Shown: positions 27,397 to 32,940, counted from the stretch's first letter. The stretch is 64,000 nucleotides of DNA from an uncultured Oscillospiraceae bacterium (GCA_947629915.1 CANRFN010000010.1:5786-69785); one strand, 5' to 3'. Notes: a model not told the origin generated them from the letters alone. Program-made: numbers and translations.

Positions 27397-29214
27397 CTAT
27401 CTGCGTTCGGAGAGGTCGTCCCAGCAGTGGGCATAGCGGAGCCTTTCCCAGGCGGACTTGTCGTAGAGAAGGAGAAAGGAGTCCTCCGGCCGCAGGTTCC
27501 CCAGGATCACAGAGAAGCTGTCCAGGACCAGGAGGAAGGTGAGGCCATCGTGCTTGAAATCGTTGGAGGAGTCATAGGTGTTCCACGCCCGGGCGTAGCC
27601 GTCCAGCATGTCCAGAAGGGAGACGTGGTTCTCATCGGACACGGTGGAGAAGTAGTCGAAGAGGATCTCTGAGAGGGTGCGGTTGTAGCTGTCCGGCAGC
27701 TCCCGGGACAGGCCGATGCCGTTCCAATCGGGCACAAAGGGCAGCGGCTGGTTGAGCGCCTCTGCGTGCTGCTGGGCGTAGTCCCTCAGAAGGGGCAGAT
27801 CCCGGGGGCAGACCCAGCAGCAGACGTTGTCGTCCCGGAGGAAGCGGGACACCTTGATCACGAAATCCTTTTGGGCGCCCTGGATCAGGTGGGTTGTGAG
27901 CTGCTGAAACGGCTGCCGCACCGCCCTGCCGGGGAAGGAGAGGTATGTCTTGACGTACTCGCCGGCGTTGTTCCTGTCCTCTCCCGGGGGATAGAAGTTG
28001 TACTGGAGCCAGTAATCGGAGTGGTAGGTGTGGATATCCCAACCCCGCACCTCCGCAAAGGGGCGAAACGCGTCCCGCAGGGGATCTTCTGCGTGGTTGG
28101 CGTGGGGCACATCGGTGTGGTGCCGCTCATCCACCTTCTGCATGGCCTCGTAGAGATCGTAGCTGTCCTTGCAGTGGAGGCGGTACAGGTCTCTGAGGTG
28201 CTGGTTGCGGGCCTCATACTGCGGGGTGTCTGTGGGTGCGGTGAAGCGCCGGGCCCCCAGGTGGGGGGAGATCCTGGGGAAGTCCTTGGGCGGCGGCAGC
28301 AGGTAGCGCCGGCGCTCCTGCTCTGCGTGTTGGGCGGCACGCCGGGCGCGGCGGGCCTCCTCCTCATCTGCGAGATGGGACAGGGCGTCAAAGAAGGCGT
28401 CCCAGGTCTCGTAGGGAGCGGGCGGCAGGACTGGCTGAGGCGGCGGATCTGCCACGGCATACTGGTGCTCCCGGGGTACGCCCTGAAAGGTCCTGTGGGA
28501 TGGGGCATCTTTCATCTCATCGGGGAAGAGGTCGAAGTTGACGCAGGTGTACCGGTAGTCGTAGTCGTCCCAGGGGTCCTGATACGGGAGGGCATTTGCG
28601 ATCACCAGCTTGTCGCAGACGGAGCCCAGGTTGGAGGGCAGCAGCTTTTTCAGCAGTTCCCGCAGCGTGCTGCTTGTGTGCCCGTCCGCCTGTTCCGCTG
28701 CCGCCTCCAGCAGAACCGGGTTGTCGATGAGGAGCATCGTCTTGTGCCCGTGATATCTGCCGTCTTGAAAGAGCTTGGTGAAGGACGCACAGAGGGCAGG
28801 CGGGTCCAGGGTGCGGCTGTGGACGGCGATGGCGGTGCGGGCGAGGCCGATGTCGAGGTCTGGATAGTAGAGGTCTGCGTGGGCCCGGTACAGCGCCTCC
28901 GCCTTGCCGTAGAGGTATTCCACGGTGTCCTCCACAGAGGTGAACTGGTAGTCCGAGAGATCCAACAGGAAGACCCGGTACTTCCCCAGGTGCTCCTGGA
29001 AATGCGGGGCCTCTGCCATGGAGAGGCCGGCGAAGAGGGCCGGATCCGCCAGGTTGCGGTCTGCGTAGTACCGGAGCAGGGAGAGCAGCGTGGAGGCCCC
29101 GCGCCCTGCGGTGCTGTGCATGCTGTACCCCCTCCGGATCTGGAGCAGGCCTGGGATGCCCTTCGTGTTGTCCCAGAAGTGGCCGCTCTGTTTCAGTGTG
29201 CGAAAGTCTGCCAT
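27397..29214 (-). CDS. Family A paralogue 3 of 3: degenerate 'predicted AAA-ATPase'-like N-domain + Pro/charged linker + HopA1/LanKC-N-like C-domain
   Basis: 605 aa. The N-terminus FRTLKQSGHFWDNT..STAGRGASTLLSLLRYY..KYRVFLLDLSDY..MLLIDNPVLLE parallels the F..LR..Y.YVDKT..RPRRFGKSL..L..YF....IDEYD layout of the predicted AAA-ATPase family, but GK[ST] and DE are lost. The C-terminus YVKTYLSF..DFVIKVSRFLRDDNVCCWV..LPFVPDWNGIGLSRE..SYN fits the pattern I recall for HopA1-family proteins. Confidence 0.75.
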   Translation of the reverse strand: MADFRTLKQSGHFWDNTKGIPGLLQIRRGYSMHSTAGRGASTLLSLLRYYADRNLADPALFAGLSMAEAPHFQEHLGKYRVFLLDLSDYQFTSVEDTVEYLYGKAEALYRAHADLYYPDLDIGLARTAIAVHSRTLDPPALCASFTKLFQDGRYHGHKTMLLIDNPVLLEAAAEQADGHTSSTLRELLKKLLPSNLGSVCDKLVIANALPYQDPWDDYDYRYTCVNFDLFPDEMKDAPSHRTFQGVPREHQYAVADPPPQPVLPPAPYETWDAFFDALSHLADEEEARRARRAAQHAEQERRRYLLPPPKDFPRISPHLGARRFTAPTDTPQYEARNQHLRDLYRLHCKDSYDLYEAMQKVDERHHTDVPHANHAEDPLRDAFRPFAEVRGWDIHTYHSDYWLQYNFYPPGEDRNNAGEYVKTYLSFPGRAVRQPFQQLTTHLIQGAQKDFVIKVSRFLRDDNVCCWVCPRDLPLLRDYAQQHAEALNQPLPFVPDWNGIGLSRELPDSYNRTLSEILFDYFSTVSDENHVSLLDMLDGYARAWNTYDSSNDFKHDGLTFLLVLDSFSVILGNLRPEDSFLLLYDKSAWERLRYAHCWDDLSERR

Positions 29215-29243
29215 GGGATGGTGTCTCTTTTCCGAGCGCGTCT

Positions 29244-31082: not shown

Positions 31083-31116
31083 AAGCGATTGTCTCCTTTC
31101 GTGTGGGGAAGTGTGG

Positions 31117-32940
31117 TCAGAAATTGGAGAGGTCATTCCAGCAATAGGCCCGCTTCAACGCCCAAAAGGCGGTCTTGTGATTCATGAGCAGGACGGATTG
31201 CTCCGCCTGCAGGTCTCCCAACAGCACAGAGAAGCTGTCCAGGACCAGCAGGAAGGTGAGTGCATCGTCCTTCTCGTAGTGGGATCGCCCATCGTAGCGG
31301 TTCCAGTCCTGGGCATAGCGGTCCAGCATCTCTGCCAGGGAGACGTCTCTCTCATTGGATCGCGTGGCGAAATACTGTAAGATGAGGTAGGCGAGGACGG
31401 AGTGGTAGCTGCTGGGGTTCAGCTCCCGGGTCAGGCCGATGCCGTTCCAGTACGGCACAAAAGGCAGCGGCTGGGTGATCTCATCCGCGTGCTGCAAGGC
31501 GTATTCCTTGAGAACCGGGATGTCACCGGGGCGAAGCCAGCAGCACACCGTGTCGTCCCGCACGAAACGGGAGACCTTGATCACGAAATCCTCTTTGGCG
31601 CGCCGGAGCAGGAAGAACACCAGGTCCAGAAACGGCTGGCGGATCGCCTCGCCGGGATAGGAGAGGTAGGCCTTGATGTACGCGCCCTCATTGTGCCTGT
31701 CCTTGCTCTCCTTGTTGAACGGAGACAGCGCGTACTGAAGCCAGTAGTACGAGTGGTTGGGCGACACGTCCCACCACAGCGCTTTAGCGGGGTCTATGAG
31801 AGCGTCTTGCAGGGGTTCGGCGCACTTGGAGAAGAGATCGGTGGGGCGGTTCTTGTCCAAGTTCTGCATGGCCGCATACAGCGCCCCGCTGCTCTCGCAG
31901 TGCCGCCGGTACAGATCCTTCAGAATCTCATTCTTGGCCCGATACTGCGGGGTGTCTGTGGGGACGGAGAAGCCGCGGGCGCCGAGGTTGGGGGAGACCT
32001 TGGGAAACTGCTTCGGGGGCGGCAGCAGGTAGCGTTTGCCCTCCCGCTCCGCAGCCTGCGCTTTCTTCCGGGCGATGCGGGCGTCTTCCTTCTCCACAAG
32101 CTGTTGGAGCCTTTCGAAGAAGGCGTCCCAGCTCTTCCAGGGAAGTGGCGGCACCGCCGGTGCGGGCGGCGTCTCCGCTACGGCAAACTGGTGTTCAGGG
32201 GGTACGGCCTGCACCCGTATGGTGTAGGGGGAGGGCGCATCGGCCAGCGCTTGCGGCTCGAGGTCGAAGCCATGGGCGCTGCGGCGAGGTCTGCCGAGCG
32301 GGTCTCTCGCAGGGAGGGAGTTTGCCACGATGAGGACATCGAAGTAGGCGTGCAGCCCGTTTGGCAGCAGATCCTCCAACAATGTCCGCAGGCCCTGCGC
32401 TGCCTCCCCGGTTGACTTCTCCACAACCTCTTCCAGCAGGATGGCGTTGTCCACCAGCAGCAGAGAGGGAGAATCTGCTTGCTTGGCGCGATAGAAGAGT
32501 TCAAAGAAGGCATCGCCGAGGGAAGAATGGGCCAGGACGCGGTTGTGAATATCGAGGGCCGTTTGCGCCAGCTCCAGGTCGCGCCTGGGATGGTACAGAT
32601 CGGTGTTGCGGCGGTAGAGATCCTCTGCCTTGCGGTAGAGGTAGTCCACCGTCTCCTCCACAGTGGTGCAGCGGAAGTCCGAGAAGTCCCACAGGAAGGT
32701 GCGGTATTTCCCGAAGAACTTCTGAAAATGCTCATCCTTTGCCATGGCCAGATCGGCGAAGAGGTCCGGGTTCGCCAGGGAGCGGTCCGTGTAGTACCGC
32801 AGCAGGGAGAGCAGGGTGGAGGCCCCCTTGCCGGCGGTGTCGTTGAGCAAGAGCCCGGACCGCTCCGCCAGAAGGGTGGGGAGGCCCTCGGTGTTGTCCC
32901 AGAAGTGTCCGCTTCGTTTCAGTGCCGCAAAGTCTGCCAT
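31117..32940 (-). CDS. Family A paralogue 1 of 3 (same architecture, first in transcription order)
   Basis: Start moved to ATG 32940 (MADFAALKRSGHFWDNT) after GGAGGAG. DTAGKGASTLLSLLRYY, LLLVDNAILLE, KRYLLPPPKQFPKVSPNLGARGFSVPTDTPQY, AYIKAYLSY..DFVIKVSRFVRD..LPFVPYWNGIGLTREL. Confidence 0.75.
   Translation of the reverse strand: MADFAALKRSGHFWDNTEGLPTLLAERSGLLLNDTAGKGASTLLSLLRYYTDRSLANPDLFADLAMAKDEHFQKFFGKYRTFLWDFSDFRCTTVEETVDYLYRKAEDLYRRNTDLYHPRRDLELAQTALDIHNRVLAHSSLGDAFFELFYRAKQADSPSLLLVDNAILLEEVVEKSTGEAAQGLRTLLEDLLPNGLHAYFDVLIVANSLPARDPLGRPRRSAHGFDLEPQALADAPSPYTIRVQAVPPEHQFAVAETPPAPAVPPLPWKSWDAFFERLQQLVEKEDARIARKKAQAAEREGKRYLLPPPKQFPKVSPNLGARGFSVPTDTPQYRAKNEILKDLYRRHCESSGALYAAMQNLDKNRPTDLFSKCAEPLQDALIDPAKALWWDVSPNHSYYWLQYALSPFNKESKDRHNEGAYIKAYLSYPGEAIRQPFLDLVFFLLRRAKEDFVIKVSRFVRDDTVCCWLRPGDIPVLKEYALQHADEITQPLPFVPYWNGIGLTRELNPSSYHSVLAYLILQYFATRSNERDVSLAEMLDRYAQDWNRYDGRSHYEKDDALTFLLVLDSFSVLLGDLQAEQSVLLMNHKTAFWALKRAYCWNDLSNF

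Follow-up and report, generated by a model that had tools for sequence, protein, structure and literature searches.

The window examined here is a stretch of 64,000 nucleotides (nt) from an uncultured Oscillospiraceae bacterium (GCA_947629915.1 CANRFN010000010.1:5786-69785), taken at its full length. Its minus strand carries three complete open reading frames (ORFs) placed head to tail, which we name copies C, B and A in their order on that strand (Table 1), and each of them encodes a protein of two parts. We are confident that the N-terminal domain is of the PF09820 (AAA-ATPase_like) type with a dead nucleotide site, and we consider it highly probable that the C-terminal module, hereafter the C-module, has a phospholyase fold. 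After copy A the same strand continues with a 359-nt spacer, a gene for a winged helix-turn-helix (wHTH) nuclease-like protein, three paralogues of about 180 amino acids (aa), a 796-nt gap and UvrD.

The three copies share 52-54% pairwise identity, with a mean column identity of 73%, which is far beyond chance, and the intergenic gaps measure 34 and 29 nt. Their MADF starts are supported by a Shine-Dalgarno-like sequence located 6-10 nt upstream of each of them, and by the presence of MADF in all orthologues. A preliminary description of this DNA had recognised the tandem paralogues, and the span that it gave, 27397-32940, runs exactly from the stop of copy A to the MADF start of copy C. The motifs it quoted are all present, and invariant or nearly so, in copies A-C: FWDNT, AG(R/K)G(A/G)STLLSLLRYY and LL(I/V)DN in the N-terminal half, then RYLLPPP..FP(K/R)(V/I)SP(H/N)LGAR, PT(D/N)TPQY and K.Y.S, and finally DF..K.SRF.RD...CCW and QPLPFVP.WNGIGL(S/T)RE. 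Most of them are kept in five homologues from other samples, more than 150 columns are invariant among eight aligned sequences, and orthologous copies of the array proteins are found in two further genomes (L001 and L018). The view of copies A-C as two-domain proteins, in which a dead PF09820-like domain precedes a phospholyase-like module, largely holds, and the copies belong to a so far undescribed family of gut Firmicutes.

The fold of the C-module carries most of the interpretation. A first full-length model of copy A, computed from the eight-sequence alignment, was poor, especially in its C-terminal half, with a predicted local distance difference test score (pLDDT) of 58.8, and its Foldseek matches all had expectation (E) values above 0.01; LanKC enzymes (class III lanthipeptide synthetases) were already among these weak matches. 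The model of residues 300-605 based on A7, an alignment of 34 diverse C-module sequences, reached a pLDDT of 93.9 and a predicted template modelling score of 0.92. When this model was compared with the PDB by Foldseek, ranks 1-11 and 14 were all phospho-Ser/Thr lyases (probability 0.75-1.00, E 1.8e-3 to 0.15), and no other fold came with a comparable E value. The N-terminal lyase domains of the LanKC enzymes PneKC (8W7J), CuvL (8CAR) and ThurKC (8SAM) are the best matches of the core (probability 0.93-1.00, root mean square deviation 3.2-4.2 Å over 135-144 columns), PneKC giving E 1.8e-3, probability 1.00 and 4.2 Å over 135 columns, and CuvL E 2.2e-3 and 3.2 Å over 144 columns. The phosphothreonine lyases OspF, SpvC (five entries) and VirA occupy ranks 3-7 and 9-11, and the LxmKY lyase complex (9DK2) is also among the matches. 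The model has the lyase fold over its core only: since the query TM-scores (template modelling scores) are 0.27-0.32, the match is limited to about 140 residues. A Foldseek search against viral structures returned nothing.

At the sequence level the C-module is far less visible. Scans of the C-terminal half against Pfam, NCBIfam, PADLOC and PHROGs gave no match, and as no Pfam or NCBIfam model exists for it, the module escapes routine annotation; family members are named 'AAA family ATPase' or 'hypothetical protein' in the databases. Word-indexed searches recover close relatives only (5 and 9 matches), and such close homologues amount to just five among 5.8 billion clusters. A single one of 185,579 species-representative genomes has a close relative, an uncultured Oscillospiraceae metagenome-assembled genome (MAG) from rabbit gut (L001), and metagenome scans with the large and with the small proteins found nothing. 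An exhaustive HMMER search of 1.84 billion representatives with a profile of the C-terminal half returned 155 sequences at E ≤ 1e-3, with 43 at E ≤ 1e-30. Apart from fragments they form three main groups: 35 members have both domains and measure 560-720 aa, some 20 of about 300 aa consist of the C-module alone, and some 30 of about 360-480 aa have the core at the N-terminus. The homology of this third group to the C-module is given by hhalign (probability 99.2%, E 5e-20).

The proteins made of the C-module alone begin at the RRYLLPPP region, and the segment RRYLLPPP...PTDTPQY has a pLDDT above 90 in the C-module model. It is not a linker motif, as had been supposed, and the boundary of the C-terminal domain has to be moved from about residue 350 to about 300. 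The module is made of an ordered N-terminal extension (this segment and two helices), a beta/alpha lyase-like core at about 378-505 and a C-terminal helical bundle. The combination of the two domains, which the preliminary description regarded as undescribed, is indeed absent from the papers searched, none of which joins PF09820 with PF17914 or a HopA1-like domain. It does occur beyond this locus, in at least 35 representative clusters, most of them with a live-looking ATPase site.

A second line of evidence comes from the distant homologues. In a permissive scan of 42 of them, PF17914 (HopA1) was the sole recurrent Pfam family, with 8 matched members and a best E of 0.003; the remaining weak matches were all singletons. 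These HopA1 matches independently support the link to the lyases. No member reaches the cut-off of 22.7 bits (P0103, for instance, scores 13.6 bits, E 0.061), and the window copies do not match PF17914 even at E ≤ 1. The early assignment of the C-terminal domain to a HopA1/LanKC-N-like class is therefore sustained on the LanKC side, with three such enzymes among the top folds, and faintly by PF17914, but the HopA1 structure itself lies outside the top 50 fold matches.

Which residues could be catalytic? In SpvC, K104 serves the enolate and phosphate, H106 is the acid and K136 the base, with R148, Y158, D201, R213 and R220 completing the site; the corresponding lists are K65, H67, K94, K117, D152, R163 and R191 in ThurKC, and R187, K219, R229 and Y236 in the HopA1-like lyase CaoY, K94 and K219 being the counterparts of the general base K136, R187 that of K104, and R148 and R229 the Arg residues that bind the phosphate (PMC9486802, PMC10604976). 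Read side by side with SpvC, whose sequence was taken from plasmid pSLT, copy A presents VK422-T-Y424-LS for DK104-F-H106-IS, K454-VS for K136-VT with an identical spacing of 32 residues from the first Lys, R460 for R148, and SR504-EL for YR213-NEL. W467 would take the place of Y158, seven residues after the Arg, as Y236 follows R229 in CaoY. In A7, K422, K454 and R460 are invariant and Y424, W467, F493, G501, S509 and N511 reach at least 90%; the first three are also conserved at 90% or more in 42 more distant sequences. We infer from this register that the Lys/Lys/Arg set with which the lyases carry out beta-elimination of phosphate is retained in the C-module. The position of the general acid (H106 in SpvC, H67 in ThurKC) is occupied by Tyr424.

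HopA1 acts by binding EDS1, perhaps non-catalytically, and the C-module could likewise be a binding domain derived from a phospholyase, which would make the whole protein a double pseudoenzyme acting as scaffold or adaptor. This seems unlikely to us, although it accounts for a dead ATPase site and for a fold match restricted to the core (TM about 0.3). The Arg-rich phosphate pocket is also incomplete, the acid His being replaced by Tyr and Y158 by Trp (PMC9486802). However, K422, K454 and R460 remain invariant across sequences of 18-30% identity, which is the pattern to be expected of an active site, and in CaoY, a proven lyase, His106 and the greater part of the Arg pocket are missing as well (PMC9486802). 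We favour a catalytic C-module, whose chemistry may differ because of the Tyr and Trp replacements and because no equivalent of R220 is evident.

The likeness to known systems has clear limits. The LanKC lyase domains and the C-module share the K-x-[H/Y] strand, followed about 30 residues further on by a Lys that would be the base in the C-module. In LanKC, however, the lyase domain is N-terminal, whereas the C-module is C-terminal and bears helical additions of about 80 residues at its N-terminal and about 100 at its C-terminal side; the His is a Tyr in the C-module, the similarity is undetectable by hidden Markov models, and there is neither precursor peptide nor biosynthetic cluster. Neither a kinase nor a LanC domain was found in the window proteins or their neighbours, which therefore do not show the LanKC three-domain arrangement with its precursor. 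OspF, SpvC and VirA share the proposed motif register, but these are single-domain type III effectors of about 240 aa from Proteobacteria, and the window family does not preserve their His106, Tyr158 and Arg220. The HopA1 family PF17914 includes the LanY lyases CaoY and LxmY of class V lanthipeptides and thioamitides. CaoY resembles the C-module in its Arg-to-aromatic spacing as well as in what both are missing; the window proteins differ in having no PF17914 match and no partner kinase of the APH type.

The loci of distant relatives bear on the setting in which such a module would work. We examined six of them. P0161 (Lachnospiraceae, 'AAA family ATPase') is solitary and has GmrSD, a DNA methylase, an AAA_15/21 ATPase and HipA within 10 kb; P0191 is near SocA/Panacea and an AAA_15/21 ATPase; P0091, a C-module-only protein, adjoins AbiEi/AbiEii; P0103, of the group of about 470 aa, is on a Mob_Pre/recombinase element; and P0023 has an HD protein, a SEC-C protein and transposases as neighbours. 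P0177 lies on a recombinase-bearing element between DUF5688 and an RNA-repair set. On this element (L010:12092-17200) the gene is followed by that set, namely a Metallophos phosphoesterase, an AAA_33 kinase, a Thg1-like enzyme and an RNA ligase, and then by an AAA_21-RloB pair. Known defence, toxin-antitoxin or mobile-element genes are thus found near the gene in five of the six loci, and judging from gene content the loci of the relatives are consistent with cargo of conflict systems. In the window, neither the three large proteins nor their three small neighbours are matched by PADLOC.

This context also bears on another explanation, according to which the large proteins are LanY-like dehydratases of a pathway for peptides (RiPPs) that ribosomes make and that are modified after translation, or of protein modification more generally, with the small paralogues as precursors that are phosphorylated by an unlinked kinase. 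The closest structures are indeed lanthipeptide synthetase lyase domains and LxmKY, several small paralogues are co-located with the array, and HopA1-like lyases use separate kinases in class V lanthipeptides (PMC9486802). We nevertheless consider it quite improbable: no kinase, cyclase, protease or exporter is found in the cassette or in its MAG counterpart, the small proteins, at 180 aa, match no known family and lack a Ser/Thr/Cys-rich core, and the distant members, at the loci examined, reside in defence islands and mobile elements, not in biosynthetic clusters.

We turn now to the N-terminal domain, which the preliminary description had placed in the predicted AAA-ATPase family, correctly in our view. 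PF09820 is matched over residues ~2-190 in all three copies (E 2e-5 to 6e-5), with scores of 24.7, 24.6 and 23.5 bits that fall just under the gathering cut-off of 26.1. The homologue P0005 clears this cut-off with 27.9 bits, and at E ≤ 1e-3 the profile finds 26 of the 114 representatives of the family (best 1.4e-14). Membership holds for the family by transitivity, the window proteins themselves being marginal by their profile scores. The match takes in the N-terminal [FY].D.[ST] motif and the order of strands and helices. The full-length model is of moderate quality in this region (pLDDT ~75-90 for residues 40-210), and its Foldseek matches, p97 D1, RadA, Elp456 and BrxC, are all weak (E ~1e-2). 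The usual fusion partner of PF09820 domains is a PDDEXK_9 nuclease, whose place the lyase-like C-module takes in the window family. PF09820 figures among the domains of RADAR RdrA, PARIS and Old-tin in a review table (PMC10952713).

In an alignment of the three window copies with 33 two-domain relatives, the Walker A GK[ST] is intact in 23 of the relatives (for instance GPRKSGKS, GEKGCGKS and AGNGKT) and an acidic Walker B D[DE] is present in 16. At the Walker A position the window clade shows AG[RK]G[AG]ST, with Ala or Gly in place of the Lys and no G-x4-GK[ST], and the copies have LL[IV]DN, so that the P-loop Lys and the second acid of Walker B are replaced in all three. The Ser/Thr after the lost Lys and the Mg-binding Asp of Walker B are kept, and the catalytic acid is gone. 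Six relatives keep GK[ST] with D-N in Walker B, and since relatives retain intact or half-lost sites in these very columns, the decay is derived and presumably stepwise, from DE to DN and then by loss of the Lys.

Could the domain be an unconventional active NTPase that still binds nucleotide, with the R/K of AG(R/K)G serving a P-loop that is non-canonical or shifted? Of six window-clade sequences in the alignment, five have an R/K two positions ahead of the lost Lys, and the conserved Ser/Thr and Asp mentioned above would suit such a site. We find this very improbable: the position is Thr in P0005, T or I in other Lys-less lineages and variable (N, S, Y, F, C) in the intact relatives, and the second acid of Walker B is lost too. 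This lack of conservation, together with the Ala/Gly in the canonical Lys column, rules out an intact but shifted P-loop, which the preliminary description had named as the finding that would undo its reading. Scarcely credible is the idea that the array consists of decaying duplicates devoid of current function, for which the lost ATPase motifs, one seemingly frameshifted L018 copy and one MAG copy without N-domain might be invoked, as none of the three window ORFs is broken and each has a ribosome-binding site, a genome with 71-92% identity in the flanking orthologues keeps orthologous pairs in unchanged order, and the invariant columns among the eight sequences exceed 150.

The reading that we prefer is that of a family of phospholyase-like conflict effectors regulated by an ATPase, in which the window clade has kept the ATPase as a dead scaffold; on the present evidence we hold the chances for and against it to be about even. 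A new type of conflict effector is probable because the relatives are found in mobile elements and beside phage-defence genes. The ancestral protein would have been an ATP-regulated effector of inter-genomic conflict, either in phage defence or as a weapon of mobile elements, whose lyase-like module would irreversibly strip the phosphate from a phosphorylated target, most likely converting phospho-Ser/Thr in a protein into a dehydro-amino acid. In the window clade, where the ATPase would have decayed by the steps given above, the N-terminal domain may now serve as a nucleotide-independent scaffold or oligomerisation domain, the C-module staying putatively competent for catalysis. Control may have moved to the co-amplified small proteins, one per large protein, in the role of inhibitors, immunity factors or specificity partners of their cognate large protein. 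Its most specific form, in which an AAA+-like switch would control a phospholyase that erases Ser/Thr phosphorylation on phage or host proteins, and in which cognate 180-aa partners would replace nucleotide control in a multi-allelic array (3:3, 4:4) akin to toxin-immunity or sensor-specificity arrays, is possible but doubtful.

Several observations weigh against this proposal. To our knowledge, HopA1 itself has no demonstrated lyase activity. The Foldseek E values of the C-module are modest (best 2e-3 to 3e-2), as are the TM-scores, and no sequence-only method ties it significantly to a characterised lyase: besides the absence of Pfam and NCBIfam matches, profile searches of the PDB with three profiles (A3, A7 and A8) gave chance matches only, and the hhalign comparison of A7 with the single SpvC sequence, which sets IKVYxS on DK104-F-H106-IS and K422 on K104, is not significant (E 0.12). 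The acid His and Y158 are substituted and R220 has no clear counterpart. The six loci of relatives were hand-picked and come with no enrichment statistic, and that of P0023 has only transposases and an HD protein to offer; the window locus itself is chromosomal and lies between UvrD and a surface-layer homology (SLH) protein, and no defence gene is recognisable there. Large and small genes were counted as 1:1 in two genomes, the small genes do not cleanly follow the large ones in their orthology, and an unrelated resident gene, probably accompanied by a terminator and a promoter, stands between the two arrays.

As far as we know, phospho-Ser/Thr lyases occur in two settings only, type III-secreted effectors and the biosynthesis of lanthipeptides and thioamitides; those that are type III-secreted permanently inactivate mitogen-activated protein kinases of the host. 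If our proposal is true, a third setting would be added and the irreversible chemistry of 'eliminylation' would reach bacterial conflict systems, through a lyase fold that is joined to an AAA+-like ATPase and that mobile elements and defence islands of gut Firmicutes carry as cargo. A family with uninformative names would moreover gain a testable function. The catalytic fold itself is known, the novelty lying in its fusion and its biological setting, and we see nothing categorically new. The family offers a natural series from live ATPase to hydrolysis-dead and then binding-dead forms, which is useful for the study of the role of the ATPase in effector control.

Table 1. Features of the locus, with positions counted from the first nucleotide of the window
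Feature	Position	Strand	Remarks
Copy C	31117..32940	(-)	607 aa from MADF; first gene of array; mechanical ORF to 33054
Copy B	29244..31082	(-)	612 aa from MADF; mechanical ORF to 31136
Copy A	27397..29214	(-)	605 aa; query for both structure models
N-domain of copy A, residues 1-210	28585..29214	(-)	predicted alpha/beta P-loop NTPase-like fold, PF09820 type; E 2.3e-5, 24.7 bits
Walker A remnant A36-G-R-G-A40-S-T42, copy A	29089..29109	(-)	A40 in P-loop Lys column of relatives (alignment)
Walker B remnant M160-L-L-I-D164-N165, copy A	28720..28737	(-)	hhhhD[DE] in relatives (alignment)
C-module of copy A, residues 300-605	27400..28317	(-)	modelled from A7
K422-T-Y424, copy A	27943..27951	(-)	beta-strand; proposed counterparts SpvC K104, H106; invariant or near-invariant in A7/A8
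K454-V-S...R460-D-D...W467, copy A	27814..27855	(-)	proposed counterparts SpvC K136 (general base), R148, Y158; K and R invariant, W at least 90%
Spacer after copy A	27038..27396	(-)	359 nt; conserved GC hairpin right after stop and conserved TTGCGT-17-TACAAT block
wHTH + PD-(D/E)xK-like protein	26273..27037	(-)	254 aa; D..ExK in ADVLVITENRVFSLEFKMKD; between the two arrays
Small paralogue s1	25691..26233	(-)	180 aa; no known domain
Small paralogue s2	25054..25602	(-)	182 aa
Small paralogue s3	24466..25020	(-)	184 aa; most divergent, identity with any other copy no higher than 45%

The gene order of the window recurs in both the MAG L001 and the contig L018. In the MAG the large genes encode 616, 307, 617 and 609 aa, followed by the 254-aa gene and by small genes of 188, 180, 180 and 182 aa. 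The 307-aa gene, m2, is a complete C-module without N-domain and the orthologue of copy C (73%); copy B corresponds to m3, and copy A to m4 (69-72%) and to P0001 (90%). L018 has an orthologue of copy A at 90% identity. We considered whether the large paralogues are diversifying fast, and rejected this: their identity between window and MAG, 65-73%, is ordinary beside that of the flanking orthologues (UvrD 71%, SLH protein 77%, sensor kinase 92%), and only the small proteins, at 64% at most, clearly evolve faster.

The spacer after copy A is conserved between the window and the MAG (L001:11831-12302) over its first 200 nt or so, the flanking proteins being 71-92% identical. The hairpin CCCCCCTCGCC/GGCGAGGGGGG follows the stop of copy A directly, and the block TTGC(G/A)T-17-TACAAT is present in both genomes. 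On this conservation the spacer probably holds a terminator and a separate promoter for the downstream genes, and the large genes on the one hand, the nuclease and small genes on the other, are suggested to form separate transcription units. Consensus scans for promoters and terminators performed no better than on shuffled sequences, and the spacer has no match in Rfam.

The wHTH-nuclease protein has 2682 homologue clusters, the best 120 of which are at 70% identity or more and come from Oscillospiraceae-type bacteria; one homologue is named 'winged helix-turn-helix domain-containing protein [Oscillospiraceae]'. It belongs to no Pfam or NCBIfam family, and its sole profile match is the PADLOC candidate PDC-S41, over the nuclease core (E 5.8e-8). 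The possibility that it is a dedicated part of the cassette, as the nuclease of a 'split' PF09820-nuclease fusion, was discarded, given its more than 2600 homologue clusters and its unrelated housekeeping contexts. It is a resident and widespread gene of the Oscillospiraceae. Some genomes have it immediately after SbcD-SbcC, and this placement suggests a conserved, uncharacterised factor associated with DNA repair.

The three small paralogues are 42-52% identical and share the conserved motifs LLPWK and ILRSWKR, with no detectable domain and no sequence match in the PDB. The family is seen only beside the large genes of the window clade, in three genomes (window, MAG and L018), and was found neither beside the distant relatives, nor beside the nuclease orthologues, nor in the metagenomes of the Joint Genome Institute. 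C-modules and intact small genes number 3:3 in the window and 4:4 in the MAG. The MAG has in addition a fifth, split small copy (L001:15546-16375): a 104-aa ORF makes up its N-terminal part, and its C-terminal part (..LLPWKSVIVTDGLIQ..) starts an ORF that runs into a CPBP/Rce1-like intramembrane protease domain, so that it is either a frameshifted remnant or a fusion. Its counterpart in the window, the 796 nt at 23670-24465, has no clear ORF on that strand.

Elsewhere in the window no tRNA gene was found. Divergent from the array, on the plus strand at 33416-38425, lies a gene for a 1669-aa protein with many tandem Cys-containing repeats (...C..C...TYTC..CG...) and a C-terminal SLH domain, which is probably a cell-surface protein and has a MAG orthologue at 77% identity. 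Finally, the stretch 46001-48000 has a GC content of 0.49, against about 0.62 elsewhere, and encodes a 163-aa coiled-coil protein (DUF7310/XhlA-like) next to ORFs without Pfam matches; it was possibly acquired horizontally.

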